From the NCBI GenBank assembly GCA_965221125.1, contig CBDCRW010000006.1, positions 192,001 through 256,000 on the forward strand: DNA of 64,000 nt, written 5' to 3'. A program made the translations under genes and the position numbers. The notes below the pieces were generated by a model, which saw only the letters and a list, made by a program, of their open reading frames with translations, did no database searches and had not been told where the DNA came from. Below are positions 745 to 21,088 of the stretch, in pieces. Every line of letters starts with the position of its first letter. Position 1 is the stretch's first letter. The DNA is from Alphaproteobacteria bacterium. GTDB lineage: Bacteria; Pseudomonadota; Alphaproteobacteria; UBA828.

Positions 745-2072
745 CACTCGTCCTCCTTCTTGTCCTTGAGGTTGCGCATGGCCAGCGGCGAGGGCGGAGG
801 CTCGGGCGCCGGATCTTCGGCCTCGATCTCCCTGGCCGGGTAGGTGCGCCTGACGGCGGTATTGGCGTAGGCGTCGAGAGGGCTGGCCTTGCCGGCCGGC
901 TTGCCGTCATGGACCACGTCGAGAGGGCGCGAGGGCGGCGCGGCCGGGTCGTAGCGCAGGATGACGTTCTGACCCACCAGGAGGGCGTCGACCTCGTAGA
1001 CGCGGCCGTTCAGACTAACGGTGCGGTCCTTGTAGACACGGCGCCTGGCCTCGAAGAGGAACAGATCGTCGAGGTCCATGGTGGCGTCGGGATAGCGCAC
1101 GCCGGCCGAGGCCAGCGCCCACTGCTCAAGCGGGGTGCGCCCCTCGTCGAGGCCACGATGCGGGCTGTTGTGATACTCCCCCTCGATCCAGGCCCAGAGG
1201 CTGCGGTTGAGCGCCTCCAGGCTGTCGACGTCATCGCCGAGGTGGCGGAGCCAGCCGGCCCGGAGGGTGCGGAAGAAGCGCTCGATCTTACCCTTTCCCG
1301 CTGGCTGGAACGCCCTTGCGTGAATCAACGCAACGCCGAGCCTGGCGCAGACCAGGGAGAGATGACGGGAGCGGTAGGCGCTTCCGTTGTCGACGTACAA
1401 GCGGGCCGGGAGGCCGCGCCGGATCAGCGCGTCCTTGAACACCGGCAGGAACGCCGCAGTGTTCTCCGCCATGGCGAAGGCGGCGAACGGGATGACGCGG
1501 GTGGCGTCGTCGATGAAGGCGATCAGGTAGGTCTTGCGCCGGGTTCGGCCGTGCCGGACCTTGGGTCCGTGCATGACGTCGCTCATCCACATCTCGCCGG
1601 CATGCCGGAAGGCGAAGCGGCGGCGATCCGCCCCGTCGGGCGGCTTCTTGTCGAACAGGCCCTCGCGGCTGAAGAGGCGGTGCACGGTGGACGAGGCGAG
1701 CGGGTGGTCGATACCCTCCTCCTTGACCTTCTGGATGATGGCGCGAACCGACAATGCGTCGTTCTCGGTCTTCAGCGCGATGAGGCGCTCGGCGACCTCG
1801 GGCGGCAGCCGCCGGGGCTTCCCCCGGTCGGTGCGGGGCTTGGGGTAGAGCGCGTCGAAGCCGCCGTAGCGGTAGTCCTTGATCCAGCGCCGCATGGTCT
1901 CGGCGGCGACCCGGGTCCTGGTGGTTCCGGGGATCGTGTAGGTCTTCTCGGCTTTGGCGCGCATCATCGCGCCGGCACCCGGTGCACCCACGGGCAGATG
2001 CACCAGATCGGCGATGACGTCGTATCGGAAGAGCGCGATCTGTTGGCGAAGGTCGTCGTCTGAGCTGTTCAT
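744..2072 (-). CDS. DDE (rve) transposase, TnsB/Mu/IS481-like
   Basis: N-terminal HTH; WMSDVMHG, FIDDATR, YVDNG, GKGKIERFF (D-D-E); C-terminal RRVYKDRTVSLNG typical of the Mu-transposase C-terminal domain. Confidence 0.9.
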   Translation of the reverse strand: MNSSDDDLRQQIALFRYDVIADLVHLPVGAPGAGAMMRAKAEKTYTIPGTTRTRVAAETMRRWIKDYRYGGFDALYPKPRTDRGKPRRLPPEVAERLIALKTENDALSVRAIIQKVKEEGIDHPLASSTVHRLFSREGLFDKKPPDGADRRRFAFRHAGEMWMSDVMHGPKVRHGRTRRKTYLIAFIDDATRVIPFAAFAMAENTAAFLPVFKDALIRRGLPARLYVDNGSAYRSRHLSLVCARLGVALIHARAFQPAGKGKIERFFRTLRAGWLRHLGDDVDSLEALNRSLWAWIEGEYHNSPHRGLDEGRTPLEQWALASAGVRYPDATMDLDDLFLFEARRRVYKDRTVSLNGRVYEVDALLVGQNVILRYDPAAPPSRPLDVVHDGKPAGKASPLDAYANTAVRRTYPAREIEAEDPAPEPPPSPLAMRNLKDKKEDE

Positions 2073-2117
2073 GGTGCGATCCTCGTTCAGGGACTCCCTG
2101 GCCCCGGGATCGTCACG

Positions 2118-2753
2118 CTACGAACTCTCCGGCGGCGGGTCCGGCCCCGCCCGTTGTTGGAACTGCGGTTTGCGATTCCCCACGTCGATGCCGTGGGGTT
2201 GGAAGCCCAGAGGCGCGGGTAGCGTCCGGAGCTGCCCGGCGACCAGGCCGCGCAGTTCCATCAACGCGCTGTCGCTCTTCAGACGCTCGCGCACCGCGCT
2301 CATGGTGGGCGCGCAGCCCGCGAGCAGGTCGGGGATCAGGCCGATGACGCGCACAAGCGCGTCGTGCACAAGCTTCAGCCTGCGGCGGATCCAACGCACG
2401 GCGCCGGGAAGCTCGATGGCGTCCTCGTCCTCGGGGCAGCGCACCTCGTCCGCTGCCTCCTCCAGGCTGCCGGCCTCCTCCGCCACGACAACAACCGCTT
2501 CCAGCGCATCGAGCGTGCCCGGCAGCCGCGCCGCCAGACAGTCGGCCAGCAGGCCGATGGTCGTATGGCTCTCACGGCAATACCAGCGAGGAACCCTTGC
2601 GCCGGGCGGGGTCTTCCGCTCGTAGGTGCCGTGGCTTGCCACAGAACATCCGCCGTGCGGGTGATTCGGGCAGCGCTCAAGCCTTGCGTCGCGCCACGCC
2701 TCGGTCTTAACGTATTCCTCGCTGGTGAGCCCCGTTTCGTAGCGAAGCTGCAC
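2118..2753 (-). CDS. Zn-ribbon accessory protein of the transposon (DUF6431-like)
   Basis: CPNHPHGGC...HGTYERK...RWYCRESH Cys/His cluster. First gene of the co-oriented trio with the transposase and ATPase. Confidence 0.65.
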   Translation of the reverse strand: MQLRYETGLTSEEYVKTEAWRDARLERCPNHPHGGCSVASHGTYERKTPPGARVPRWYCRESHTTIGLLADCLAARLPGTLDALEAVVVVAEEAGSLEEAADEVRCPEDEDAIELPGAVRWIRRRLKLVHDALVRVIGLIPDLLAGCAPTMSAVRERLKSDSALMELRGLVAGQLRTLPAPLGFQPHGIDVGNRKPQFQQRAGPDPPPESS

Positions 2754-2861
2754 CGGCCCTGGCCCGGCGGGAGTTCCGTCCCCCGGGCCTCTCTTTGTCG
2801 TTCAGTGAGAGGCCAAGATTACGGACGCTCCCCGCCGCCGCCAAGCTGTGGAGCCGTGGAC

Positions 2862-2895
2862 GCGTCCTGCGGACCGATCGGCGTCCTGCGGACCG
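2862..2895. repeat. 15-bp direct repeat GCGTCCTGCGGACCG x2
   Basis: Identical copies at 2862-2876 and 2881-2895. Confidence 0.85.
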
Positions 2896-2997
2896 TGTGG
2901 ACAGCCCGTGGACAAGCTGGCGCTTGCCCACCGCCTGACCACACTCGCCGAGGTTGTGTCCCCAGACGTGGTGTAGGAGCTCCCGCTACCCCCGGTA

Positions 2998-3066
2998 GCT
3001 GTGGGTAACCGGCTTGGCGCCGCGACCGCCCTCGAGTCTGGTGGCGCCAAGCCGGTTATCCACAGC
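2998..3066. repeat. 24-bp inverted repeat (hairpin) containing DnaA-box-like TTATCCACA
   Basis: GCTGTGGGTAACCGGCTTGGCGCC (2998-3021) pairs with GGCGCCAAGCCGGTTATCCACAGC (3043-3066), with one mismatch. Confidence 0.8.
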
Positions 3067-3137
3067 GGGGTGGCCATCGCGGTTCCGGTTTAGGGTTTGG
3101 GTGAATCCGAATCGACCCGAGCCTAAGGAGAACCACG

Positions 3138-4334
3138 ATGACCGATGACAAGCTTACCCTGCGGACGCTGTTGGAGAAGAGCTCTGACGCCGATCTGCTG
3201 CGTGAGATGATCGCCTTCTCTGCGCAGCGCCTTATGGAGCTGGAAGTCGAGGGCCTGACCGGCGCCGAGCATGGCGCGCGGACGCCGGAGCGGATCAACC
3301 AGCGCAACGGCTACCGCGATCGGCCTTGGGAGACCCGGGCCGGCACGGTCGACCTGAAGATTCCGAAGCTCAGGAAGGGGAGCTACTTCCCCGGCTTCCT
3401 GGAGCCCCGACGGACGGCGGAGAAGGCGCTCACGGCGGTGATCCAGGAGGCCTACATCCAGGGGGTATCGACCCGCTCGGTCGACGAACTGGTTCAGGCC
3501 ATGGGCATGAGCGGGATATCGAAGAGCCAGGTCTCGCGCCTTTGCGGGGAGATAGACGACAAGATCCGCAGCTTCCTCGACCGCCCGCTCGAAGGCGACT
3601 GGCCCTATCTCTGGCTGGATGCGACTTACGTGAAGGTGCGCGAGGCCGGGCGCATCGTCCCGGTCGCGGTCACCGTGGCCGTCGCGGTCAACGACCAGGG
3701 CCGGCGCGAGATCCTCGGCATGGCGATCGGCGCCTCCGAGGCCGAGACCTTCTGGACCGAGTTCCTGCGCTCGCTGACCAGGCGCGGCCTGCGCGGCGTG
3801 CAGCTGGTGATCTCCGACGACCACAAGGGCCTGAAGGCCGCCACCACCCGGATCCTCGGCGCCACCTGGCAGAGATGCCGCGTCCACTTCATGCGCAACC
3901 TGCTGGCCCATGCCGGCAAGCAGGGCCGGCGCGTCGTCTCCGCCTTCGTCGCCACCGCCTTCGCCCAGGACGATGCCGAGGCCGCTGCCGCCCAGTGGCG
4001 CCTGATCGCCGACCAGCTCAGGCCCAAGGCCTCCAAGCTGGCGGCCCTCATGGACGAGGCCCAGCACGACGTCCTCGCCTACATGAGCTTCCCCAAGGAG
4101 CACCGGGTCAAGCTTCACTCGACCAACCCGCTCGAACGCGTCAACGGCGAGATCAAGCGACGCACCAACGTCGTCGGCATCTTCCCCAACGAGGACGCCA
4201 TCACCCGCCTCGTCGGCGCCGTGCTGCTCGAGCAGAACGACGAATGGACCGTCGGAAGGAGGTACATGACGCTGGAATCGATCGCTCCCCTGAGCGACAA
4301 TCCCACGATCAAGCTGTCCGCTGTGGCAGCCTGA
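3138..4334 (+). CDS. IS256-family (mutator) transposase
   Basis: [62 protein letters not shown]; RBS AAGGAG upstream. Confidence 0.97.
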
Positions 4335-4580
4335 ATAACCCGGCCCTACCCGCCGGATGCCGCGTAAAGCGCGACGCTCTTACACCACTCCTCGGGACAC
4401 GATCCTCGCCGATCTCGCGCCCACCGCTCCACAGCTTCAACAGCAATGAGGATTCTGCTGAGGATCAAAAAAATGCCGCAGGCAGCGTCCTTCCCGCACT
4501 CGGCCACCATCCCGGGAAATCCACCAACCAATCAAAGTGAGAAAAAAACCCGTGCTTCTATCCGGCTAGACCGGAAAACA

Positions 4581-5042
4581 ACACGCAGTCCGTGGAGGGC
4601 AGGGGCTTCCGACGTTTCAGCCCACCGGATCCTCTCGGACCTCTCGGCCTTGATCGGCCACGAGGATCCATCCCGGCACCGAATTCTCGCGGCGGGAGAT
4701 CTGAACATGATCTACGGTGCGACCGGGCGAACCCTGGCACTGCCTGAGCGCGACCGCTCCGTCTGGAACCGCTTCGAGGCGCTCGGCCTGGAGTTTCTCG
4801 GGCCTCAAGCGCCGAACGGCCGACAGTCCCTGGTGCCACCGCCCGATGTGCCGCCGGACACGCAAAACGTTCCGACCTTCTATCCCGTCGGCAAGTCTGC
4901 GGCCGATGCCGCGGTCCAGCTCGACTACGCCTTCGCGTCGCGCGGCTTCCATGAAATGGTGAAGGTGCGCGCCCTCAACAATGTTGATGAGTGGGGCTCA
5001 AGCGACCATTGCCGGCTGCTGATCGAGATTGAGACAGAATGA
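4581..5042 (+). pseudogene. Endonuclease/exonuclease/phosphatase (EEP) gene, 5'-truncated by the transposon
   Basis: AAGDLN, QLDYAFAS and SSDHC motifs are present. The N-terminus is replaced by transposon end sequence. Confidence 0.8.
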
Positions 5043-5138
5043 GGCATCCTGCCCACCGGCGCAGGAAAGTGAGTCATTCGCGATTCCGGTCCGGCAATCA
5101 CCACAAGGTCTATCCTTTGGCATTACGGTCTCTCGCAG

Positions 5139-5370
5139 TTGATACTCAATGACGTCGGAATGAAGGATGTGAGACTGCATGACCTTCGACATGCGATTGT
5201 TAGTAACGCCGTCCGGCGGGGCATCCCGCTGGCTGTCGTCTCCCGCCTGCTCGGCCACAGGCGGCCGGGCATGACGCTGCGCCATGCACACGTCGGAGCC
5301 AGCGAGACTGAGGCGGCGGCGGAGCGTATTGGTGGGGCCGTCGCGCGGGCACTGCGTAGTGATGCAGCCG
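5139..5370 (+). pseudogene. Tyrosine recombinase C-terminal remnant
   Basis: VRLHDLRH...VVSRLLGH...MTLRHAHV; the catalytic Tyr is replaced by His and there is no N-terminus. It resembles the C-terminus of the 44256-45413 integrase. Confidence 0.8.
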
Positions 5371-5521
5371 CAAATTCCCAATCGGTCCTGAAACGTCTCC
5401 ACGCGCCTCACGAGTATCTTGACCCACAGCAGTTCCCCCTTCAGGCTCCGAGCTCGAATCGGCTGGCAGAGGTCCACAAGCCGCGCTGGGGCGTGGCGTA
5501 TAGCATCAGAAGCACCGGATC

Positions 5522-7018
5522 ATGAGCACCGGGGTGATCAGGCAGAAGATAAACCGTCTTTCGGGTGGTGCGCGCCCGCGTGTGCTAGACCTTTTCGCCG
5601 GCTGCGGCGGATTGTCACTTGGCTTCCTGGCCGCCGGCTGTGAAATCGCGGCTGCTGTGGAGTCGGATCCCGATGCTGCCGGATCTCACGGAACCAATTT
5701 TCATCCCGGCGATGACCGACATGCTCAGCCGCGTGATATCACCAGTGTAACGCCGTCAGTCCTTGCTGAAGAGCTGGCTCTGAGCGATCCAGCACACGCA
5801 GTCGACATCATTGTTGGTGGCCCGCCCTGTCAGGCATTTGCCCGTGTAGGTCGGTCAAAGCTCCGGGAAGTTGCTGATCACCCAGAGGCTTTTCGGCATG
5901 ATCCACGGTCCCGATTGTATATTCGTTACTTGGACTATGTTGAAGCATGTGCCCCTCTCGCAGTTGTCCTCGAGAATGTACCAGACATGCTTAATTTTGC
6001 TGGCCGTAACATTGCCCATGAAGTCTGTGAGGTTCTCGCGGAGCGAAATTATTCCTGCGCTTATACCTTGCTCAACGCTGCCTATTATGGTGTGCCGCAG
6101 ATGCGGGAACGCGCATTTCTGATCGCTGTCACCAAAGAGCTATTAGCCAGCGTCACGTTCCCCGCGCCTACGCACTGGATTAAATTGCCTTCCGGCTATG
6201 AGGGATCCCGCGCTGTGGCCCTCAAGCTTCTCGCACATAGCGACACGCATGGTCCGGACGAATTCTGGAAGCCATTTCCTGATTCCAGGGCCGACTTGCC
6301 GACCGCCGTTACAGCAAAGGAGGCATTGCAGGACTTGCCGGAGATTGATGCGCGGGCGGAGCTCGCGAGCGGCAGGCTGAAGAGAGGTGCCCGTCGTTTC
6401 GATAAACCCATTCCGTTTCCAATTCCAAACATCCTCACCGATTATGCACGTATCATGCGTAATTGGCCAGGATTCGAGGCGCGTGACGAGATTTGCGACC
6501 ACGTTATTCGGTACTTACCCCGTGATTACCCACTCTTCGCCCGTCTTGATCCAGGTGACCAGTATCCTGAAGCGCATCGCCATGCGGAGAAAATGTTTGA
6601 CGAAATACTAACTGAACGTCGCAAACAGAAACAGACGCTGCGCAAAGGATCGAAAGCATGGCGTGAGCTTCGCGGCAGTATCGTGCCACCTTATGATAAC
6701 TGCAAGTTTCCTAACAAATGGCGGAAGATGGAATCAGATCAACCGGCACGAACCCTACTGGCCCATCTGGGTAAAGACAGCTACAGCCACATTCACTACG
6801 ACAGTAAACAGGCCCGCACCATATCGGTGCGCGAAGCCGCTCGACTCCAATCCTTTCCCGATGGCTTTGTTTTCTGTGGCACAATGAATCCCGCATTCAG
6901 ACAGATTGGCAATGCCGTGCCGCCACTCTTGGCCAAAGCAATTGGAGAGACTCTGCTTTCCCAGATCACATCTGCCATCGACGTACCGACTTCAGCAACG
7001 GCTGTTGCCGGGGGGTGA
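5522..7018 (+). CDS. dcm: DNA (cytosine-5)-methyltransferase
   Basis: LDLFAGCGG (motif I), GGPPCQ (IV), LENV (VI), QMRERAF (VIII), REAARLQSFPD (IX), QIGNAVPP (X). Confidence 0.96.
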   Translation: MSTGVIRQKINRLSGGARPRVLDLFAGCGGLSLGFLAAGCEIAAAVESDPDAAGSHGTNFHPGDDRHAQPRDITSVTPSVLAEELALSDPAHAVDIIVGGPPCQAFARVGRSKLREVADHPEAFRHDPRSRLYIRYLDYVEACAPLAVVLENVPDMLNFAGRNIAHEVCEVLAERNYSCAYTLLNAAYYGVPQMRERAFLIAVTKELLASVTFPAPTHWIKLPSGYEGSRAVALKLLAHSDTHGPDEFWKPFPDSRADLPTAVTAKEALQDLPEIDARAELASGRLKRGARRFDKPIPFPIPNILTDYARIMRNWPGFEARDEICDHVIRYLPRDYPLFARLDPGDQYPEAHRHAEKMFDEILTERRKQKQTLRKGSKAWRELRGSIVPPYDNCKFPNKWRKMESDQPARTLLAHLGKDSYSHIHYDSKQARTISVREAARLQSFPDGFVFCGTMNPAFRQIGNAVPPLLAKAIGETLLSQITSAIDVPTSATAVAGG

Positions 7019-7021
7019 GAT

Positions 7022-8962
7022 GTGTCAAACGAATCGCCGGAGGTCATAATTGTCCGCTCCCTTGCTGAGTCTGACCTTGGTCTATTCGCAGCTCACCGTA
7101 AGGCCGCCCGGAGCAAACAACGAGCAATCAATATCAACTCGTCCATTGCCCGCAAGTTTCTGAGTCCCGCCGTCTACAAGCTTGGCAAAACGAAACTCAA
7201 CTGCATCTGTGTTTTCGGAGACACGGTAGTCCGAGAGGCCCGACGATTCGGGAAGACGCATAAGAACTGGCGTCTTGGTGGCAAGAAGATTGAAGGAGAG
7301 ATCTTTGCCACACTCGACAGCAAGGATTTTGCCTTAATCCGGTCTGTTGCCGGCAATGACGGGTCTTATCCGGTAACGATCACGTTTGTATCACGTCACA
7401 CGAATAGGGTCGTTCACGCCGGTCTTGCCGCTGTGGTCGAACGAAAACTGACTGACAGTATGACGATATTTGAAGAAGGTGTTGACGGATTTGGCTCCAT
7501 CGCCGAACACTGTCCTTGTCTGAGTTGGGACGAAGCACCTGCAGGGCCGCGTTCACCAGCGGGCCGGTCTCGGCCGATACCTCCGATGCCAACGGAGGAC
7601 AGCGAGGCCCGCCCTCGCAAGGCCAGAACGATCAGGGACAAGGTGCGTAGTCCTCACATCCTTGAAAGGATGCTGCGGGTGGCTGGCGATCTGTCGGCAC
7701 CTGCTCAACTGCGCTTTATGGAAACGGTGGAACAGCTTGCAAGCCAGCTACGACACGTGCTGATTGAGACCGGAGGAATCCAACGCATAGAGAAGAATCA
7801 CCGAAATCTTTGGGGCAGTGTCGCTGGTCGGCCGATCGGTTTCGTGGACGGTGGTCTTGCTAATCTTTCCATGCTTGGATCAGCGCCGATCGCGGCTCGA
7901 GTGGGCGGCTATACCGTTATACCCGGCGTGCATGGGGAGGAGCGGGAGAGATTTGTAGTCCTGAAACACCTTATCGATGAGCTCTACGCTCATGACCAGG
8001 AGGCTGTTTACGAGGACACCTTTCCCGATATCGGCGCGCTTCGGGATGCTGCTCGTATTTCGATCGAGGCGGCTGGCGCGGTCCGGTTGCTTGCCGACCA
8101 GAGCGATCTGTCGTGGGTGTTCCTCCACGGTGCACTTGTAAACCCTGTGTCCCGCTATACAGATGTCATGCGGGATCGTAGGGTGCGGCACCGTTTCCCT
8201 AACTTTTCGAAGTCAGCGCTAACAGAGCTCTTGCCGACGGGGGAGCCACCAAGGCGTGGCCGAGATTGTAATTTCATCAGTGTCCATCTCAGGCAGCTCG
8301 AATTTCTTTCAGATGCAGAGGCAGTTGTCTGCGGTGTGATAGAGCGAGAGAGCACAACCACCTCAGTTTGTCGGGCTGTGCTTGACAGTCTTGAGGACGA
8401 CCTGATCCGCGATTTCTTGCCCTTACCGCCGGCTGAGTGGAAGCGCTGGTTCCGCACTGCCGTTGACCCGTCAGATGATGATGAGTTCGAAGGTCAGCGG
8501 ATCACGGACTCGTTGCTGTTCCGGTGCGTGCTTGAACCTGGCGAGGCGCTTCTGCCCGTGATGGTTGATCGTAACGATATGCGGCGGGCGCCAGATGCGT
8601 GGCGGGACCTTATTGTTCGTTATCCTAAGCCACATGTTTCCTATATTCAGGTGACAGAATGGAGCGCGCCTGTGAGACTGGAACTGTTTGAAAAGGACCT
8701 GGGACGGTTCCGGAACACAGCCGGTCTAGTCTTGCATTGCGCGTTACTGCTTCCCCGCTACGCCTTTCCTGTAGGTCTCGATATTGTGGACAAATTCGCT
8801 CGGATTCCGAACTGGATGAGTCGACCGATAAACACTCACACTGCTGTGCAAGCTATGAAGCAAGCCCTTGACCGGGGAGATACGCGGCTGTTTGACGCCT
8901 TGCGCCACACGCTATGCGGATCCGGTCGAGAATTCTTGCTTCGTCCTGGCATATATCGATAG
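7022..8962 (+). CDS. NurA-family nuclease with an N-terminal putative B3/EcoRII-N-like DNA-binding domain
   Basis: C-terminal part has FVDGG, ISIEA, FLHGALV and YAFPVGLDIVDKFA in NurA order, and lies directly upstream of HerA. The ~165-aa N-terminus (VRSLAESDLG...KQRAININ...RFGK..KNWRL) is followed by a Pro/Arg linker. Confidence 0.72.
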   Translation: MSNESPEVIIVRSLAESDLGLFAAHRKAARSKQRAININSSIARKFLSPAVYKLGKTKLNCICVFGDTVVREARRFGKTHKNWRLGGKKIEGEIFATLDSKDFALIRSVAGNDGSYPVTITFVSRHTNRVVHAGLAAVVERKLTDSMTIFEEGVDGFGSIAEHCPCLSWDEAPAGPRSPAGRSRPIPPMPTEDSEARPRKARTIRDKVRSPHILERMLRVAGDLSAPAQLRFMETVEQLASQLRHVLIETGGIQRIEKNHRNLWGSVAGRPIGFVDGGLANLSMLGSAPIAARVGGYTVIPGVHGEERERFVVLKHLIDELYAHDQEAVYEDTFPDIGALRDAARISIEAAGAVRLLADQSDLSWVFLHGALVNPVSRYTDVMRDRRVRHRFPNFSKSALTELLPTGEPPRRGRDCNFISVHLRQLEFLSDAEAVVCGVIERESTTTSVCRAVLDSLEDDLIRDFLPLPPAEWKRWFRTAVDPSDDDEFEGQRITDSLLFRCVLEPGEALLPVMVDRNDMRRAPDAWRDLIVRYPKPHVSYIQVTEWSAPVRLELFEKDLGRFRNTAGLVLHCALLLPRYAFPVGLDIVDKFARIPNWMSRPINTHTAVQAMKQALDRGDTRLFDALRHTLCGSGREFLLRPGIYR

Positions 8963-8985
8963 AGAAAAACACACAGGCGGACGTT

Positions 8986-10749
8986 GTGAACGAGCTTGAA
9001 CAAAACGGATGGCGAAAAATCGGCACCGTAGTCGGCAATGCGGGTACTGCAGAGTTCACGTTTATTCTAAAGCATTTTGAGGCACGAGTGGGTGACATTG
9101 TAGCCCTCGGTATGCAGATACCGGACAGCGCATATCAAGGGCGAACACGAATCTATGTCTGGACCAGAATCACAGACATCAGACGCTTCAACCCGTTCTT
9201 TCCATATGAGGCTGCACAAGAAATTGCGGGAGAGGGTATATCCCTCGAAGATACAGTCCTATCTGATACGCGTGACCAGCTTGAGGCCGTGGCCCTGATT
9301 CTTGGAACAACACCAGAAACTGAGCTTTCCCACCTCTCACCGCTCACCTATCCGGTCAAGCCAGCCTCGTCGGTCTATCACCCACCCGCCGAGGCTATCC
9401 GCCGGCTCTTGATCGGCGGCCGGGAGGATGAACGCAAGACGCTGATTGGTTCTCTCATCGCGCGCAGCGATGTCGAGGTAACACTGTCCGCGCCTCGCCT
9501 TGTTGCCCGTCATCTTGCCATCCTGGCCATGACAGGAGGCGGAAAGACCGTTGCTGCACGGCGCATCATTCGCGAGCTTATCACTCATCAATACCCATTG
9601 CTGATACTTGATCCACACGGTGACTACGTGGGACTCGCGAACAGCAGTGAGCTCTTCGAGAGGGAAGCTCCAGGGTCGACGATCAAGCTCTTCTATCCGG
9701 ATTTGCTCATGCAGCAGTCGGGCGAGGCTCTGATTGAAAAGGTCATTGGTCAGATGACCGACGGCCTTAGCGAACCCCAGTCGGATTATCTCCGCTCCGT
9801 CTTCAACGCCCAAGCTGCAAAGGATGGCGAGCCAGCGATCGACTATATAGAGCGGCTACTGAAGCGTACCGATAGCGACATCGCGAACGCACGCGATAAG
9901 CGCCAAGTACCCACCATGTACGCTGTGAGGCGTTCGCTCCGCATCGTTCACGGCAGGCTCGACAGCATGCGCCGCACGAGTGAGATGATGCGCCGCAGCT
10001 CTCGGCTGCGTCATTTGCCTTTTGAAGCGTTGCCAAATCCCTTTAGTCAGCCCGAGGACATTGTCCAACCTGGGCAAGTCTCTATCCTGTATCTGGGCGG
10101 CTACGACCACATCACGCAATGTTCAATTGCCGCCATTACGTTGGAAACGTTGTTTGAGTTCAGAGCCAATCTGACGGGGCGCATCGCCCCGTTCCTGACT
10201 GTCGTCGAAGAAGCACACAATTTCATTCCGTCGGCCCGCGAGGGCACACAGGACGCCGTTTCGCTCCCTGTCATGCGTCGCGTAATCACGGAAGGCAGGA
10301 AATTTGGCACAGGACTGATGCTGATTTCACAGCGGCCGAGCCGGCTGGACGAAACCATCGTCTCGCAATGCAATTCCTTCCTAATCCTTCGACTTGTCAA
10401 CCCCCGAGATCAAAATTTCGTTCGTTCCATTATGGAAAATCTCACCGAATCCGACGCGCGAATGATTCCGGGCTTTGGACCGGGGCAAGGAATTGTCAGC
10501 GGTCAGGTTGTGCGCTTTCCCCTCCCAGTGCGCGTAAAGATGGACGAGGATCTCTTGGCGTCCGAGATCGGCGATGAGGATTTCTTCGAACAGGCTGCTG
10601 CATGGCAGCCTGATGCGCACGCACCTGCCCGCAAGGCCATCGGCAACTCGATTTCCGCTGTGAACCGAAGTCGCCGAAAAGCGGGTTCGGCATCTACCTC
10701 CAAAGCTAAGACGCGGCGACGACGATCACCTAAGACGCAGCAAGAATAA
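8986..10749 (+). CDS. herA: HerA/FtsK-family ATPase (DUF87) with HAS barrel
   Basis: N-terminal IGTVVG barrel; HLAILAMTGGGKT (Walker A), LDPHGDY, VVEEAHNF (Walker B), EGRKFG, ISQRPS. GTG start at 8986 chosen after AGGCGG. Confidence 0.9.
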   Translation: MNELEQNGWRKIGTVVGNAGTAEFTFILKHFEARVGDIVALGMQIPDSAYQGRTRIYVWTRITDIRRFNPFFPYEAAQEIAGEGISLEDTVLSDTRDQLEAVALILGTTPETELSHLSPLTYPVKPASSVYHPPAEAIRRLLIGGREDERKTLIGSLIARSDVEVTLSAPRLVARHLAILAMTGGGKTVAARRIIRELITHQYPLLILDPHGDYVGLANSSELFEREAPGSTIKLFYPDLLMQQSGEALIEKVIGQMTDGLSEPQSDYLRSVFNAQAAKDGEPAIDYIERLLKRTDSDIANARDKRQVPTMYAVRRSLRIVHGRLDSMRRTSEMMRRSSRLRHLPFEALPNPFSQPEDIVQPGQVSILYLGGYDHITQCSIAAITLETLFEFRANLTGRIAPFLTVVEEAHNFIPSAREGTQDAVSLPVMRRVITEGRKFGTGLMLISQRPSRLDETIVSQCNSFLILRLVNPRDQNFVRSIMENLTESDARMIPGFGPGQGIVSGQVVRFPLPVRVKMDEDLLASEIGDEDFFEQAAAWQPDAHAPARKAIGNSISAVNRSRRKAGSASTSKAKTRRRRSPKTQQE

Positions 10750-11210
10750 TGGTGGACGTACTGACACCGGAGCAGCGTCGCCTAAATATGAGTCGTGTCC
10801 GGGGGCGCGATACGAAACCCGAGATGCTACTACGACGGGCTTTGCATGCTCGTGGATTGCGTTTTCGTTTGCATCGCCGCGACCTGCCGGGCAGACCCGA
10901 CCTTGTGTTCTCTCGTTACCGCGCTTGTCTGCTGGTTCACGGGTGCTTTTGGCACGGTCACGACTGTGCCCTTTTTCAGTGGCCAGCAACGCGTCGAGAA
11001 TTTTGGATCCAAAAGATTGCAGCAAACCGCCAGCGTGATCAGGAAACACTCAATAGGTTGATGGAATCGGGATGGCGTGTTTTGGTCGTTTGGGAATGCG
11101 CGCTGAGAGGGACTGGGAGAAAGGATTTTCCGGCAGTCATAGACGAGTGTGTGAGTTTTGTTACCGGTCTCAACTTAGAAGCCGAAATTGCGGGGTACAA
11201 ACGAATCTAG
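10749..11210 (+). CDS. vsr: Very short patch repair endonuclease
   Basis: DVLTPEQRRLNMSRVRGRDTKPE, LPGRPDLVF, VHGCFWHGH, VWEC. Translationally coupled to herA (TAATG). Confidence 0.96.
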   Translation: MVDVLTPEQRRLNMSRVRGRDTKPEMLLRRALHARGLRFRLHRRDLPGRPDLVFSRYRACLLVHGCFWHGHDCALFQWPATRREFWIQKIAANRQRDQETLNRLMESGWRVLVVWECALRGTGRKDFPAVIDECVSFVTGLNLEAEIAGYKRI

Positions 11211-11225
11211 ATCGCAGTACCGCTG

Positions 11226-11527
11226 GTGGCTCAAGGCCTCCGAGGAGCACTGGGAGCGCTTCCGCAGCCTGTGGCGCCGCGCCAAGGTGCTCGACGTGTG
11301 AATCGACACCCTGCCCGCCCATACGGACTGGCTGGAGCGCAACGAGCGCCTGCGCCGGGAGGGCAGGGCGATCCTCGACGATCCCGGGACCTACGGCGTC
11401 CACCTCAAGCGCGGGGACGACTTCGTGGAACCCCGTGGCCGACCCGGTGTCGCGGATGAACCGCCTCTCGCCGCAGCACCGGGCCCAGTCGCAAAGCCGC
11501 GACAGGGGGCGGTCATGGAGCATGTAA
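11226..11527 (+). pseudogene. Probable relaxase/mobilisation protein C-terminal remnant
   Basis: Broken frames reading WLERNERLRREGRAILDDPGTYGVHL and ending QSQSRDRGRSWSM*, a tail typical of relaxases. GC content shifts abruptly after vsr. Confidence 0.45.
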
Positions 11528-11798
11528 GCGCTTTGGAGGAGGCGCGGAATATCCCGGCGAAAGCCCGGCGCGTGCAGGGTAGCATTACCCGCCGCTCACC
11601 GGCACCCTGTAACCGCCGTTCATGAGCTTGAGCGCCTGCTTGGCTGAATGGAGTTCGGTTCATACTCCACCTCATTATACCGTTGGGGGTCGCGCTCGGA
11701 GAGCCGCGTTCGTGGTGAGAGCTCTAGCCGTTGTTTGGTTGCTCAGCAGGTTCGGGTATCTGGATCATGGTCCCCAGGAATGACTCGAGGTCGCTGCC

Positions 11799-13028
11799 GT
11801 GAACACCTCGCCGCTGCTGATTACCGCACATGACGATGAGCTGGTCGGGGCGTCCAACCCCGCGGACGCGATGGGCGTTCTCGCGATATGGTCCATCAGA
11901 GGCCGAGACCTTGTCCCGCATCTCACAGAGCAGACAACCAACGTTCGGGGCTTTCAGATCCTCGTGGAGGCCTTCCGCCTATGGGAGCTCTACGAGCCCG
12001 CACACCCAGAGCACGCCGGCCGGCTGGACGATTTCTTTCTGCTGATTGAGCAAGCCTTCGCCCGCGTCGTTGGTTGGCGTGACGGGGACTGGTACTTGCC
12101 CGGTGCCCATCGGGTGCGAGCGCGATCCTCGGAAACGCCTCGGATATCACTGGAGGACTTGGGCTGGCACCTGCTTGGTGGCCAGAAGGCGAACGGACTG
12201 TGGGGACTATATCGGGGGGCGTCACGACGGGCAGGGCTGCTAACAGACGATATGACGCGGCTCTCCGATGAGACGATGAACGAGGCCAAGAGAAACGCAG
12301 GAGTCGTGGGTCGGGCCCAAACGCGACTGTTCAGGGCAGTGCGGGATGCGATGGATGGCCGCACGGTCGAGCTTCCGACGCACAGGAACAACGCGCTACC
12401 CAACGCGCTTTACGAAACGTTCTGGGATGTGCCGCTCGCCGATCATTTGCATGTGCGGCTGATTGAAGGGCATGACCTAAACAGACAGCTCGCCGAGCGT
12501 CTGCTCGATATTGAAGAACTTGCACACCGAAATTTTCTCAGCGATGCGGCCCGAGATCTGCCCGAACATCGAGCCAAGATCAAGGATGCGGTTCGCTGCG
12601 AAGACTTTCTCGCCGTTGTGGAGGCGGTCTTCCGCTGGCTTTGCGCCAGAAAGGGCAAGACGGTCGAAGCTGCGGTGGAGGACCTTCCTGTCGATTTGGA
12701 TACGCTTTCCGCGGCGCGCGACTCGTTCGAGCACTCCGGCTTCTACGGAAGAGGAACCGCGCGAGAACGTCAACGTCGGTTCCGTGAGGAACTCGACCCG
12801 TCGAGCAAGGTCAAGTTAGCGCGCTCGGTGCTCCTGCTCCACGAGATGGTGAGCGAGGAGAGGAAGCGGGCTCCTAGGGTGTGGGAGGAACAAGGCGTGC
12901 TGTTGAGCGACGTGGAAGTGGACCCTCCATCCAAACGCGAGCTTCGGGTGGGAGCGGCTTGGTGCAACGATTACTACCTCGCACCGCTGCAAAACATCGT
13001 TAAGCAGCTTGCGGAGGTGCGCGAGTGA
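11799..13028 (+). CDS. Hypothetical protein, first gene of a PLD-helicase operon (DUF6361/Azaca-like N-terminus)
   Basis: 409-aa ORF with DAMGVLAIW...LVPHLTEQTTNVRGF and GLWGLYRGAS. Overlaps the next gene (GTGA). Confidence 0.6.
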   Translation: MNTSPLLITAHDDELVGASNPADAMGVLAIWSIRGRDLVPHLTEQTTNVRGFQILVEAFRLWELYEPAHPEHAGRLDDFFLLIEQAFARVVGWRDGDWYLPGAHRVRARSSETPRISLEDLGWHLLGGQKANGLWGLYRGASRRAGLLTDDMTRLSDETMNEAKRNAGVVGRAQTRLFRAVRDAMDGRTVELPTHRNNALPNALYETFWDVPLADHLHVRLIEGHDLNRQLAERLLDIEELAHRNFLSDAARDLPEHRAKIKDAVRCEDFLAVVEAVFRWLCARKGKTVEAAVEDLPVDLDTLSAARDSFEHSGFYGRGTARERQRRFREELDPSSKVKLARSVLLLHEMVSEERKRAPRVWEEQGVLLSDVEVDPPSKRELRVGAAWCNDYYLAPLQNIVKQLAEVRE

Positions 13029-14923
13029 ACGACCTGAACACGGTGCGGACGCGAATCGAGCGGGCATCGCAGTACTTCCGCGAGATGCACGGCGTCGTGC
13101 TGACCACGTTCAACTTGAACGGGGAGTTCCTCGAGGACCACGCATTACCCGCCGTTCTTGGCGTCGATGCGAGCACCTCCGCAGGTCGCCGAGCAGAGCT
13201 TCACCAGCGCCTCGGAACGACGCCCTGCACGGTCTTCTACGATCCGGCGACCCAGCCCAGGATATCGGGCCGATACCGATATGTCGCGCGGCCAATGCCG
13301 ATCCGCGGCCGCTTCTTTCACCCAAAGCTCGTCGTCATCGCCGGCCGATCGGAGAACCGCACGACCTGGGTGTATCTGGCGGTCTCGTCGGCCAATCTTA
13401 CTCTTTCCGGGTGGGGACGGAATGCTGAATCATTCGGCGAGACATGGATTCACACACGTGGCCAACAGGCATGGACGGCTCTTGATGCCCTGTTTGACTG
13501 GCTAAGTTCTCACAGCTCTTTGGGAGAGAAGCAAGGCAGCACCGACGCCGTGGCCCGTGTCCGCGCCGCTTTGGCGCGTATGCCCAACCGAAGACGCTTC
13601 AGCAACGACGATTCGGAGCCTTGGTCGGGCACGCTTCACGCCGACCTGTATGTGTCGGTTGTGCACACTTCGGGGTTTGCCGAGTTTCTCCGGGGCAAGC
13701 GCGCCCGGGGTCCCTCCGAGCTGTGGGCGTACAGCCCATACTGGAGCGACGTGACCGAGCAGGTAGCGAAATTTGATGCGCAAGAGACCGTGCTCGTTCC
13801 GGCGCTTCGCACCGACGGGGGCGCGCTCGGGCTCTCACGGGAGCAGGTGGAGGAACTCAGCGACGGAATCAAGATTTTCCGCAACGAGCGAGACGTTGGA
13901 GACCGGTTCTGGCACATGAAGGCGTACTGGGCTCGGCAAGGGGAGAGGATTCGCACTGCCGTCGGCAGCTGCAATTTCACACACGCCGGACTCTCCGGCA
14001 GTGATGGGAACGTCGAGGCAATGCTCGTGCTGGACGGCGAGCCTGAATCGCTTCCTGAAGGCGCGGAAATCGAGGACGACGACTTCGCTGAAGAAACAGA
14101 GGCTGAGGAGGGCAAGCCCGAGGCGGCTCCTGTGGCCATCGTGGTGGCGTGGGATTGGAGAGCCAGCGCTTGGCGATGGTGGCTGGAAGCGGGCCCGCGC
14201 CAGCGCAGCTTCATGCTGTGCGTTCCCGGTCTCGCTTCATTTCGGATCAAGTCGGGTGTCGGGAAAAAGCCAAGCATGCCACCCAAGCCAAGCGCAAACT
14301 TCACCGTGTTCTACCGCGCCGACCAAGATCCAGCCGAATGGCAAGGTCAGGTCGTCGAACTGAACCTTGACTATAGCTCGAGGACTTACGGTCGGCGGCT
14401 CACCGCAAACGAGATACTCGAGAGTTGGCGAGGCAGGGCGCCCACATGGGATCCAGGGGGAGGGGGAGGCGGAGGGAATGGCGATCCGAGTGACGAGGAC
14501 GACGACTTGGACGGCGACACCCCCGCCGCATTCAACGCCGTAAATCTGTTCGATTTCTACAGATCGATGAGCGCGCTGCGCAGTAAGGTACGGGCGCTGG
14601 ACGAGGATCAGGACATCCAACGTGGATATCTCGTTGGCCGACCGGACAGCGTCATGGCCCTTGCCCACCTTGTTGACCGAGACGATGAAGCGCCAATCGT
14701 GCGATTTCTAGTCCTCCGTGAACTGCACGCCGTCGCCTCGACTTGGGCAAACATTCTTGATGCGGAGCTTGTGGAACGGATCGGACAAATGACGAGAACG
14801 GCCCGAGATCGCACTTACGCCCGACTCCGGCAAGAACTGGATGGGAATAAGAAGAAGGCCGACCGCATGCTCGATTGGTTCGAAAACGAGCTCTCTAGAC
14901 TCGACGGCGAGATGGACGCGTGA
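13025..14923 (+). CDS. Phospholipase D-family nuclease (two HxK motifs)
   Basis: FHPKLVV...SSANLT...GRNAE and WHMKAYW...GSCNFT...GNVEA. Confidence 0.88.
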   Translation: MNDLNTVRTRIERASQYFREMHGVVLTTFNLNGEFLEDHALPAVLGVDASTSAGRRAELHQRLGTTPCTVFYDPATQPRISGRYRYVARPMPIRGRFFHPKLVVIAGRSENRTTWVYLAVSSANLTLSGWGRNAESFGETWIHTRGQQAWTALDALFDWLSSHSSLGEKQGSTDAVARVRAALARMPNRRRFSNDDSEPWSGTLHADLYVSVVHTSGFAEFLRGKRARGPSELWAYSPYWSDVTEQVAKFDAQETVLVPALRTDGGALGLSREQVEELSDGIKIFRNERDVGDRFWHMKAYWARQGERIRTAVGSCNFTHAGLSGSDGNVEAMLVLDGEPESLPEGAEIEDDDFAEETEAEEGKPEAAPVAIVVAWDWRASAWRWWLEAGPRQRSFMLCVPGLASFRIKSGVGKKPSMPPKPSANFTVFYRADQDPAEWQGQVVELNLDYSSRTYGRRLTANEILESWRGRAPTWDPGGGGGGGNGDPSDEDDDLDGDTPAAFNAVNLFDFYRSMSALRSKVRALDEDQDIQRGYLVGRPDSVMALAHLVDRDDEAPIVRFLVLRELHAVASTWANILDAELVERIGQMTRTARDRTYARLRQELDGNKKKADRMLDWFENELSRLDGEMDA

Positions 14924-17900
14924 GGCCTTTCACCCGACCAGTGCGGCCCCAGGACGTGGGAGACCTCATCGACCTCACAGTGGTGGGCGACAACGAATCG
15001 CAGTCGATGGCCGATTTGCAGCTTGAGGGCGTCGCGGCCATTTACAACATTCTCTGCCAGCACAATTTTGCCTACCTGGCCGACGAGGTGGGCATGGGCA
15101 AGACGTACCAAGCGCTCGGGCTGGTTGCGCTCTTGTGGAATGAGATGCCAGACGCACGCGTGCTGTTCATCAGCCCTCGCCAGAACCTTCAGGTGAAGTG
15201 GCACGGAGACTACATCCGCTTCTTCGCCTCGAACTATCGCCGAGAGCAGGGACTAGGGGATGACCGGGCGGCGTCGGTGCTGTTCGGCGAGCCGCTTCAT
15301 CGGCCGGTGTTGTTCCATAACCTGAGAAGCTGGACGTCGACGATTGGCCTATCCGAGCGCATCGCGCCTTTTGTCCGACACACCAGCTTTACGCGGCCGG
15401 TCTACCTGACATCCAAAGACCTCGGCGACATGGATGACCTTTGGGAAAAGACCAGCAGACGGCTCCGCAGTTGCGGCCTGTTCGGGGTCGAGCCGCCCCG
15501 CGGTCTGACGGAGGACAACGCTCCGCTTCTACTCAATCTCGAATTCGCTGGGGCCGTAAACGCAAGACTCACCCGGGAGGTCGGCGAACGGCCTTATTTC
15601 GATCTCGTCATCGTAGACGAGGCTCAATGTCTGCGAAATCCCTGCAACCAGACAAACCGCGTGCTGTTCGCCATGCTAAAGGGTCATGTAAGGAAGTGGC
15701 TCTTCATGAGCGCGACGCCCGCCCACGGCGGACCTGAGGATCTCCCGAAAATCCTCAACCACTATCCGAACGGCGGCGAGGTTCTCGATCCAGATCTCGT
15801 TCACGATCTGCCGGCCATGCAAAAGGCCTTACAAGCTTTCCTTGTACGCCGACAGCGAAGCTATCGGGCAGCAGGGCCCAACAAGATGGTGCGAAAGGGC
15901 GAATATCGCAAGCATGACTCCAAGGACTGGGGCGTTCGAGACGATGAGATGAGCCCGCTGGCGACGCTAGCGACGGGGCTCGTCCAGAAGGGATTGGTGA
16001 ATGTTCTCCGCGGGAGGAGCAATCGGTACCGCATTGGATTTCTCTCCTCCTTCGAGAGCCTGCAGACCTCGCTAAATCGCACGCTGCCCGCATCCGTCTC
16101 GGACAGCGATGCGCAAGATGAGCAGGTGGCCGGGGACTGGCACCGCGACCAGGTAGACACCTTCACCGAGCCCGAGGCGCCCGACACCGACTTCATCGAG
16201 AAGCTGGCGTCCTCTTTCGAGGATCGCTTCGCCATGCCGATGCCGCATCCCAAGGTCGACTCCGTGGTGGACCGTGTCGCCCCGCTCGCATTTGGCGCTG
16301 ATGATGAGAAAGGTGGAGCAAAGTTCCTCATTTTCACGCGACGGGTCAGCACTGTGGATGCGTTGTGCAGTCGGCTGATGTACCGATACCACCGGAGCAT
16401 AGAGCAGCGGATATGGAGGTGCTGGGACACCGCGCTCGACTGGAGCGGCAAGAGCGTCCGTGTCGAGGATTCTGACGGCTCCGAGGATCCCGAAGCGTTC
16501 GATGCCGACCCGGGTGAAAGCCCCTTTCGTCGCGCGATGTCGAACAAGGGGTGGCTCTTTCGCTATCGCCAGACGTTTCGCGCGAGCGGCAGGAACGCAC
16601 TGTTCTTCGAGGATGGCTGGTTGCGGCGTCTGTGTTACGCCGGCGGCGTTGATCCAAGTGAAGCCGCAGACGAATTCCCGGAAGAGCTGTGGGCGGAGAG
16701 TTGGACACACGCATCTCGATCGGCCGGGCCACGTCAGAACCAGTATCGTGCGGAGAGGGCTCGCTATCTCGCCGTACAGGGGATCCGCCGGGCTCCTCAT
16801 GTGTTCGGCCTCGATGTCGAGAGTGCAGCTCCATGGCGGACCGCCTACGAGGCGGCGCTCCACGAGCACCTCGATCGAGCGGAGCCTGCTGACGACCCGC
16901 ATTACGCGCCAGAGCTATTCACACAGCGGACGCTGTGGACGGAATGGGATGACCGCATTTCCGACGAGCATTTGAGCCTTCCCGTCGCTATGCCCGAGGG
17001 TGTTGGGGCTGAGTTCAATCGCGACAAGCTGTGCGATGAGTTGTGTCGTCGGCAAGTCGTGCGCACGGTGCTGGGGCAGACATTTCGGTTGACGGACGTG
17101 CTGCTCGATTTGTACTTCGCCAACGAACAGGCAGAGCGGGACGCAGACGTGTTCCCGCGTCGCTTTCTGGACTGGCTACTATCGGCCGATCCTGGCGCCC
17201 GCCAAGTCCAAGCCGATTGCGTCCAGTGGATACAGCACATTCGCCTCATCGTGGATAGCTGTCTGGACGGGGCCGGTCAAAGTTGGCGTGTACTGGCTCG
17301 CGAAGAAAGCTGGCCCCAGCTCTACAATCCTTTGGCGGTTATCGGGGTGGTCGGCGGATCGGGCGCCCATCGCGTCGCGACGAGGCAGTTCCGCACGCCG
17401 TCACTTCCACGCGTGATCGTCTGCACCGATACGTTGAAGGAGGGTGTGGACCTGCACCTCTTTTGCGATCGAGTTCTTCACTACGGCGTCGCTTGGACCT
17501 CCGGGGACCTTGAGCAGCGCGTCGGCCGCGTGGACCGTTTCTTTTCGCAGATCGAGCGACGCCTTCGCTCCGAGGGCGCCCCTCCGGATGTGGTCCTTGG
17601 TGTTGGATACCCGCATGTGGTCGCTTCGCTCGAACGAGCGCAGATCGACCGCGTGATCGAGCGCCAGAAGCGGGCCGAGCAGCTGATGGATTCCCCGCTC
17701 GCCGGCACTCGGCGCGAAAGCAGGGAACTGGTCGTCGGCGCCGGAGCGCCGCGCGCGGCTGAGAGCGCGCTGGAGCCCTACGCGCGCAAACGGAATCAAT
17801 ACCCGCGAAATGGGCGTCAGGTCGTGGTCGTGTCGAAGCGGGACGCCCGAAAAAGCGTGGAGCACTATTGCTCCTGGTACGACGAGCTCACGAACGCGGT

Positions 17901-21002: not shown

Positions 21003-21088
21003 CGGTGCAACCCGCCCCGTCTACCGCGTCTTCCTGCCGCCCGCTAGGTTGGAAGGCGCGGAACCGCGGGGCCGGAAGGAGAAGCCTG

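Follow-up and report, generated by a model that had tools for sequence, protein, structure and literature searches.

A cassette of four abutting, co-oriented genes (positions 5522–11210, plus strand) in an alphaproteobacterial genome encodes a C5 cytosine DNA methylase, a protein of 646 amino acids (aa) predicted to join a B3-like DNA-binding domain to a NurA-type nuclease, a HerA-type ATPase and a Vsr endonuclease. It is read here, with a probability of roughly 60%, as a restriction-modification system that spreads horizontally, depends on ATP, uses 5-methylcytosine (m5C) as its mark and is directed against foreign DNA. The window, that is the whole stretch of DNA analysed, comprises 64,000 nucleotides (nt), positions 192,001–256,000 of the forward strand of contig CBDCRW010000006.1 in assembly GCA_965221125.1 (Alphaproteobacteria bacterium, UBA828); all positions are counted within it, and its features are collected in Table 1. 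The grounds for the reading are the identities of the four genes, the two folds of the 646-aa protein, the conserved putative catalytic acids and Walker A motif, the gene order, and the linkage between the DNA-reading domain and the methylase.

Gene products and predicted folds

In a sequence-only reading of this DNA the four genes had been described as tightly packed and co-oriented, and this was borne out by their junctions: a gap of 3 nt separates the methylase gene from that of the 646-aa protein, and the HerA stop codon overlaps the Vsr start in TAATG. Translated from the ATG at 8914, HerA would overlap the 646-aa gene by 49 nt; the GTG at 8986 is more likely to be its start, because alignments with homologues mostly begin at residues 29–33.

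The methylase matches PF00145 (E-value, hereafter E, 1.4e-55), TIGR00675 (163.6 bits; cut-off 100.65) and the PADLOC family MTase_II (2.5e-74). Its motifs FxGxG (25), PCQ (102), ENV (151), QMRER (193) and GNA (463) are intact, and a long variable region separates motifs VIII and X. The model of Escherichia coli Dcm matches over the N-terminal catalytic part only (48 bits; cut-off 710) and therefore gives no target site for the enzyme, which is presumed to be the self-protecting modification enzyme. Vsr is matched by PF03852 (E 1.8e-32), TIGR00632 (157.8 bits; cut-off 97.85) and PADLOC Vsr (5.2e-40). None of the four proteins matched a family of conventional type II endonucleases in Pfam, PADLOC or NCBIfam, as the sequence-only reading had noted; its accompanying statement, that Dcm with Vsr normally goes together with an endonuclease, was too strong, since Dcm and Vsr also occur as orphan pairs, as in E. 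coli K-12.

HerA matches PF01935 (E 3.2e-25; 89.9 bits, cut-off 23.2) and PADLOC HerA (1e-47), with its Walker A motif GGGKT at residue 208. Its closest sequence relative in the PDB is HerA of the Thermococcus kodakarensis HerA-NurA complex (E 8.1e-38), which outranks the HerA proteins of defence systems, TdpA being far weaker (3.8e-8). Against the HerA equivalogs of NCBIfam the best score is 159.8 bits, with cut-offs of 800–970; the protein is therefore a member of the HerA family and no equivalog of any curated subfamily. It is presumed to be a hexameric DNA translocase and the partner of the nuclease.

By sequence, the 646-aa protein matches no family of Pfam (E ≤ 10), PADLOC or NCBIfam, its best match in the PDB has an E of 2.2, and a profile of its family searched against the PDB found no NurA chain. 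Homologues number 294 at E ≤ 0.001 in one database; among the matches listed, with the window's own protein set aside, 119 are 61–84% identical to it. Some are named 'DNA double-strand break repair nuclease NurA' by NCBI, the named ones coming from Burkholderia, Kordiimonas, Azospirillum, Bradyrhizobium, Desulfovibrio and a Thermodesulfobacteriota metagenome-assembled genome (MAG). That an additional N-terminal B3-like domain precedes NurA had been claimed beforehand and was confirmed by the structure model, not by sequence search; the call proved right because the model matches the folds of the BfiI/EcoRII domains and of NurA. The AlphaFold2 model, built from a 50-sequence alignment (mean predicted local distance difference test score, pLDDT, 87.7; predicted template-modelling score, pTM, 0.67), predicts two folds, a B3-like reader and a NurA nuclease.

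For the NurA domain, the top Foldseek match of the whole model is NurA of Sulfolobus solfataricus (2ygk_A, E 1e-7). In VIA-align the same chain gives Z 20.1 (root mean square deviation, rmsd, 3.8; 284 of 319 residues aligned, residues 224–624), followed by T. kodakarensis NurA (Z 17.3), TdpB (8wfd_G; Z 16.7, 291 aligned) and Deinococcus radiodurans NurA (Z 13.5); Argonaute/PIWI domains lie below these (Z about 11–12). Sequence identity to NurA is 10–12%. Five relatives (P0144, P0146, P0149, P0153 and P0169) pass the Pfam cut-off for NurA, at 26–34 bits against 21, and the same five match the window's protein at E 2e-97 to 3e-54. In the 50 aligned sequences the FVDGG motif (residues 273–278) contains the invariant D276-G277-G278; E349, E441 and D590 are also invariant and H369 and D496 nearly so, the invariant acidic residues being putative catalytic ones. 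Judged from the conservation of these putative catalytic acids, of the HerA Walker A motif and of the methylase motifs that were checked, the enzymes of the cassette are likely to be active.

For the N domain, VIA-align matches the C-terminal recognition domain of BfiI (3zi5_A; Z 12.2, rmsd 3.1, 144 of 166 aligned, residues 3–167) and EcoRII-N (3hqf_A; Z 11.3, rmsd 3.0, 139 of 173 aligned, residues 4–159); Foldseek finds the BfiI and EcoRII recognition domains at E 2.9e-4 and 3.5e-4. The protein family is modular. A search of cluster representatives gave 230 relatives and revealed an N unit (about residues 1–180) and a C unit (about 200–646). Some proteins consist of the C unit alone (about 430 aa) or of the N unit alone; in others, of about 600 aa, the C unit is preceded by another N-terminal region. 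Within the long-form family the mean pairwise identity of the C domain is 0.51, that of the N domain 0.37 and that of the linker 0.22; between distant long-form members and the window it is 0.23–0.33 for the N domain versus 0.37–0.50 for the NurA domain.

Conservation of the cassette and its relatives

Conservation of the four-gene neighbourhood had been proposed beforehand as a check, and it is strong: the order methylase, 646-aa gene, HerA, Vsr is kept in all four reference-genome loci (an alphaproteobacterial MAG, a Thermodesulfobacteriota MAG, Kordiimonas and a Chloroflexota MAG) and in most of the 44 distinct long-form loci. A metagenome scan provided 80 further loci; with the locus of the window's own genome (L005) omitted and 13 loci with identical C-termini collapsed, 85 loci were reduced to 72 distinct ones. 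Adjacency was counted in loci with enough flanking sequence (for HerA at least 300 nt). In the long form, HerA lies directly 3′ of the 646-aa-type gene, and on its strand, in 42 of 42 loci; the methylase lies directly 5′ in 33 of 35, and elsewhere in the locus in the remaining two; Vsr follows HerA in 30 of 33, and is found elsewhere in the locus in the other three. Where the flanks are complete, methylase and Vsr are both present (14 of 14 long-form loci).

In a sample of 401 genomes from the phylum of the window, the cassette was present in 2, the window genome counted, and only four related loci were found on viral contigs. It had been called AT-richer than the core genes, and its G+C content (GC) is indeed 0.52–0.58 (5501–11000) versus 0.66–0.69 (1–4500) and about 0.70 (19501–21500) in the flanks. 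Rarity, foreign composition and high identity across phyla therefore point to horizontal spread.

The N domain is also met apart from NurA. It is fused to a T5orf172 nuclease-type domain in one protein (P0253), and a search of plasmid proteins returned the N domain only (residues 7–176 or 7–196; 46–48% identical) on five Rhizobium/Sinorhizobium plasmids. On plasmid p42f of Rhizobium etli CFN42 (L093, record positions 109773–120545) the homologue is a stand-alone protein of 193 aa, 48% identical, annotated as 'hypothetical' and with no Pfam or PADLOC match. On its two sides lie a C5 methylase (65% identical, residues 5–486) and a Vsr (55% identical), both homologues of the window's; the methylase side also carries a CopG regulator and a 169-aa hypothetical protein, and a divergent operon encodes four proteins, namely a GHKL ATPase (PADLOC MzaB, 2.6e-108), one with a Z1 domain, one of PD-(D/E)XK type and one of AIPR type. 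As methylase, reader and Vsr are common to the window and p42f while the effector set is swapped, the reader travels with the methylase and the motor-nuclease part is exchangeable. Co-travel, stand-alone occurrence, the T5orf172 fusion and faster divergence all fit what is expected of a specificity module matched to the methylase.

Short-form loci (26; the short or alternative class includes a few fragmentary open reading frames, such as L068 and L070) code for a NurA-like protein that lacks the N domain and is about 430 aa long, with HerA directly 3′ on the same strand in 26 of 26. Their C5 methylases are mostly of other families (25–34% identical, some 48–56%), and position directly upstream was judged by tblastn ends, which understates adjacency for these divergent methylases. 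Many carry an AIPR protein of about 685 aa beside HerA (PF10592 and PF22879, E to 8e-92; PADLOC MzaE). By tblastn, AIPR is present in 17 of 30 short-form versus 0 of 53 long-form loci, counted before de-duplication and with the window's own locus included. A mutual exclusion of AIPR and the B3 fusion was nonetheless rejected: on one viral contig (L091), AIPR and HerA are combined with a homologue that bears the N domain (30% identical) and with another C5 methylase.

Three further builds were observed. A five-gene relative consists of C5 methylase, Vsr, a NurA-like protein of about 430 aa with no reader, HerA and an AIPR/MzaE protein of about 685 aa (metagenome loci L058, L060, L062, L066, L067, L074, L080–L082, L085 and L086); its NurA-like component matches no PADLOC family. 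Short-form NurA-like and HerA genes at L079:9424–11649 (minus strand), with no methylase or Vsr within 6 kb, adjoin a gene for a 741-aa PLD-domain protein, suggesting that the NurA-HerA module has one more set of partners. The NurA-like proteins P0146, P0149, P0153, P0169–P0191 and P0215, each of about 600 aa, have in common another N-terminal region; it is conserved, spans some 165 residues, has no Pfam match and may be a further DNA-reading head.

Proposed mechanism, alternatives and known systems

In the proposed mechanism the methylase would mark a specific site in host DNA, and the B3-like N domain would bind the same site when it is unmethylated, like the related domains of EcoRII, BfiI and NgoAVII. 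Binding would place the fused NurA nuclease, probably as a dimer, and a HerA hexamer on foreign DNA; HerA would then spend ATP on driving the DNA through NurA or past it, and NurA would nick the DNA and afterwards degrade it. Vsr would stand outside the attack, presumably repairing the T:G mismatches that arise by deamination of m5C at the methylase's sites. Two options are conceivable for loading: NurA may cut first, after the site has been bound, or HerA may assemble round the DNA at the bound site. Loading of the HerA ring at an internal site on intact DNA is the weakest step of the mechanism. The sequence-only reading had likewise taken the extra N-terminal domain to make NurA sequence-specific, with unmethylated sites loading HerA-NurA and Dcm protecting self DNA, and each of its points that computation could reach was borne out.

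Several points weigh against restriction. The characterised NurA-HerA complexes act from DNA ends, and restriction must begin on intact DNA. The 646-aa protein misses the Pfam NurA family (PF09376) even at E ≤ 10, and the match between the site of the reader and that of the methylase is deduced from their co-travel alone. Constant presence of Vsr would be predicted equally by a function centred on repair. Finally, methylase and Vsr are non-adjacent in L047, L052, L057 and L071, and at least one short-form locus with full flanks, L079, is without either; a NurA-HerA pair can therefore occur without methylase and Vsr.

In another explanation, two independent units merely travel together, an orphan methylase-Vsr pair and a methylation-independent NurA-HerA defence triggered, for example, by DNA ends or phage proteins, in the manner of SIR2-HerA or DUF4297-HerA. 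The NurA-like and HerA genes of L079, with no detectable C5 methylase or Vsr, are in keeping with it, as are the pairing of NurA-HerA with unrelated methylases (25–34% identity) and the varied effectors that HerA partners in methylation-independent systems. In the cassette, however, the nuclease-motor pair is enclosed by methylase and Vsr with overlapping or 3-nt junctions, the enclosed order recurs in 4/4 genomes of different phyla and in most of the 44 loci, and the reader is tied to the methylase even where NurA-HerA is absent. We consider independence of the two units unlikely.

Presence of Vsr in nearly all loci with enough flank, including all 14 long-form loci with full flanks, would suit a site-targeted repair in which Vsr nicks 5′ of the mismatched T at deaminated sites and the B3-like domain brings NurA, a 5′-to-3′ nuclease, together with HerA to excise the damaged strand; a mobile methylase-Vsr pair would so bring its own excision function into any host. 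The reader stands directly beside Vsr in R. etli, and NurA-HerA is classically a complex for resection and repair. The cassette has, on the other hand, the traits of a defence system, which speak for restriction: it is AT-richer than its surroundings, lies beside PDC-M27 and transposases, occurs in 2/401 genomes and has homologues that are still 61–84% identical in unrelated phyla, and the short-form relatives carry a predicted abortive-infection-type gene (AIPR/MzaE) beside HerA. Patchy distribution, atypical GC and the defence-island setting suit defence or a selfish element better than repair, and AIPR/MzaE genes in the relatives likewise speak against it. The R. etli module is paired with a Mza-type set, including a PD-(D/E)XK nuclease, that has no obvious role in patch repair; in structure, the reader is nearest to the domains by which restriction enzymes recognise their sites; and TdpAB demonstrates the same type of machine in the service of restriction. 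Repair is accordingly held to be quite improbable.

The AIPR partners of the short-form relatives, being of abortive-infection type, bear also on a suicide or addiction module, in which the methylase would hold NurA-HerA off the host chromosome, and loss of the cassette, or methylation disturbed in infection, would lead to attack on host DNA and cell death. The outcome would be post-segregational killing or abortive infection, and the invader would not be destroyed directly. That restriction-modification systems act as addiction modules is established, and strong horizontal mobility and tight packing are in agreement with this. Addiction is nevertheless compatible with restriction, as the same enzymes could do both; the cassette of the window is without an AIPR gene (tblastn); and no result obtained here separates host from invader DNA as the physiological target. 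As the principal function, addiction is given little credence.

Restriction by a machine of this kind is not without precedent. The NurA domain is closely matched in structure by TdpB (Z 16.7, 291 aligned) of the TdpABC system, in which a TdpA hexamer goes with the TdpB nuclease (PDB 8wet, 8wfd), and TdpA is a detectable relative of HerA (E 3.8e-8); TdpAB is a HerA/NurA-type machine that forms the restriction half of a phosphorothioate-based restriction-modification system (PMC12914056). There is thus already one characterised example of the idea of a HerA-NurA-type restriction module. In TdpABC the mark is phosphorothioate, made by TdpC, whereas in the cassette it would be m5C, made by a Dcm-type methylase, with a fused reader and Vsr in addition; no TdpC-type or other modification family besides the C5 methylase was found in the four proteins (Pfam, PADLOC, NCBIfam). 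Archaeal NurA (Z 20.1) and HerA (8.1e-38) are nearer to the cassette than TdpB (16.7) and TdpA (3.8e-8), which indicates a related architecture of another subfamily.

The NurA-HerA resection complexes of S. solfataricus, Pyrococcus furiosus, T. kodakarensis and D. radiodurans resemble the cassette in the NurA fold (Z 13.5–20.1), the kinship of HerA and the adjacency of nuclease and ATPase genes; the cassette differs by the extra B3-like domain and by 10–12% identity to NurA. The classical pair is flanked by Mre11-Rad50, whereas that of the cassette is flanked by methylase and Vsr and is mobile and patchy. In the excerpted parts of a 2026 review (PMC13748450), Thermus and Deinococcus are the only bacteria with a characterised NurA, and no methylase-linked form is mentioned.

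In CglI and NgoAVII (PMC4267653, PMC4267654, PMC5737866), a C5 methylase is combined with a nuclease that reads DNA through a B3-like domain and with a separate NTP-hydrolysing motor. There the nuclease is of PLD type and the motor DEAD-Z1, whereas the cassette has NurA (RNase H-like) and the HerA ring ATPase; no PLD, DEAD or Z1 domain was found in the cassette proteins (Pfam), the PLD and SNF2 proteins at 13025–18645 belonging to PDC-M27, and no sequence similarity between the cassette and CglI/NgoAVII was detected here. The EcoRII-N/BfiI-C domain, which reads the recognition site in those enzymes, has the same fold as residues 3–167, with 12–15% identity and no Pfam match; it is joined to a PD-(D/E)XK or PLD nuclease in EcoRII and BfiI and to NurA in the cassette.

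Mza, a label taken here from PADLOC output only, is a candidate system of PADLOC-DB (GHKL ATPase MzaB, Z1, PD-(D/E)XK, AIPR MzaE and C5 methylase). Homologous methylase, reader and Vsr lie beside a Mza-type set in p42f, and a MzaE-like AIPR occurs also in short-form NurA-HerA loci; the effector module of the cassette is NurA-HerA instead. No Mza family of PADLOC was matched by the 646-aa, HerA or Vsr proteins, the PADLOC listing for the methylase covering 25 of its 60 matches, and no AIPR gene was found in the window by tblastn. A paper describing Mza was not found, the name being absent, by term search, from two PADLOC papers (PMC8565338, PMC9252829). SIR2-HerA and DUF4297-HerA resemble the cassette in that a HerA-family ATPase partners an effector in a defence operon; their effector is SIR2 or DUF4297, that of the cassette NurA with a reader, plus methylase and Vsr, and the neighbour of HerA matches neither SIR2 nor DUF4297 (Pfam, PADLOC). 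Classical type II systems, finally, combine a methylase with a stand-alone, ATP-independent endonuclease, whereas the sole nuclease candidate of the cassette is the NurA fusion, always paired with an ATPase.

The sequence-only reading had recognised no named, characterised system. PADLOC names none for the cassette, which belongs neither to TdpABC nor to CglI/NgoAVII, Mza, SIR2-HerA or DUF4297-HerA, and no description of a methylase-NurA-HerA-Vsr system was found in the full-text literature, a search that did not cover REBASE and supplementary files, where such systems could be listed as putative. The precedents of TdpAB, CglI/NgoAVII and Mza had been overlooked, and because of them the concept is less new than was implied.

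If restriction is the function, the cassette would be the first methylation-based restriction system with a NurA-HerA machine as its cutting half. It would carry the precedent of TdpAB over from phosphorothioate to 5-methylcytosine, a far commoner mark, would extend the principle of a B3 reader, known from CglI/NgoAVII, to another nuclease and another motor, and would pose the question of how an end-acting ring translocase gets loaded at an internal recognition site. It would also give a function to widespread bacterial proteins labelled as double-strand break repair nucleases, a label that would probably be misleading there. More tentatively, at somewhat less than even odds, the B3-like domain may be a portable sensor of unmethylated sites that belongs to the methylase-Vsr module and is plugged into interchangeable ATP-driven killing modules: fused to NurA here, with HerA-NurA loaded at internal sites of intact foreign DNA, and stand-alone with a Mza-type GHKL-Z1-PD-(D/E)XK-AIPR set elsewhere. 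If so, the cassette would define a class of restriction systems, so far uncharacterised, that are m5C-based, driven by a motor and fitted with swappable effectors, and the mode of loading would be one not known for HerA-NurA. A modular reader might also find practical use as a programmable DNA-binding head.

Setting of the cassette in the window

Table 1 Features of the cassette and its surroundings, with positions in the 64,000-nt window.
Feature	Position	Strand	Remarks
C5 cytosine DNA methyltransferase (Dcm-type)	5522–7018	+	498 aa
Reader-NurA fusion protein	7022–8962	+	646 aa; GTG start; presumed restriction subunit
DNA-binding pseudobarrel (B3-like) domain	7022–7531 (about aa 1–170)	+	Structural matches; presumed reader of unmethylated site
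Linker	7532–7630 (about aa 171–203)	+	Predicted to be disordered; low confidence, poorly conserved; pLDDT <50 at residues 173–188
NurA-type RNase H-like nuclease domain	7631–8941 (about aa 204–640)	+	Carries FVDGG; structural matches
HerA-type FtsK/HerA-superfamily ATPase	8914–10749	+	611 aa from ATG 8914
Vsr very-short-patch repair endonuclease	10749–11210	+	153 aa
rve/Mu-type transposase	744–2072	-	Upstream of cassette
Mutator-family transposase	3138–4334	+	E 7e-122; upstream of cassette
Integrase fragment	5139–5525	+	128-aa open reading frame; matches only C-terminal part of phage integrase; abuts methylase start
PDC-M27 A/B/C	11799–18645	+	PADLOC candidate system; three co-oriented genes directly 3′ of cassette

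The location in a defence island, also part of the sequence-only reading, agrees with the neighbours on both sides, PDC-M27 3′ and two transposases with an integrase fragment 5′; the fragment is probably a remnant of the element that brought the island. PADLOC matches the three PDC-M27 proteins at E 1.3e-11 for A (409 aa), 1.2e-28 for the PLD-like B (632 aa) and 2.7e-90 for C, a SNF2-type helicase of 1241 aa. PDC-M27 was rejected as a component of the cassette and is regarded as a separate defence candidate, because it has no match beside the cassette in the other 85 loci. The open reading frames at 5139–5525 and 11072–11527 were likewise dropped as parts of the cassette, neither being conserved beside it elsewhere. 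A promoter and terminator scan of 4900–11900 gave results no better than shuffles. A 698-aa protein with two AAA ATPase domains is encoded at 18906–21002 (plus strand), where GC is back at about 0.70, and probably marks the end of the island.

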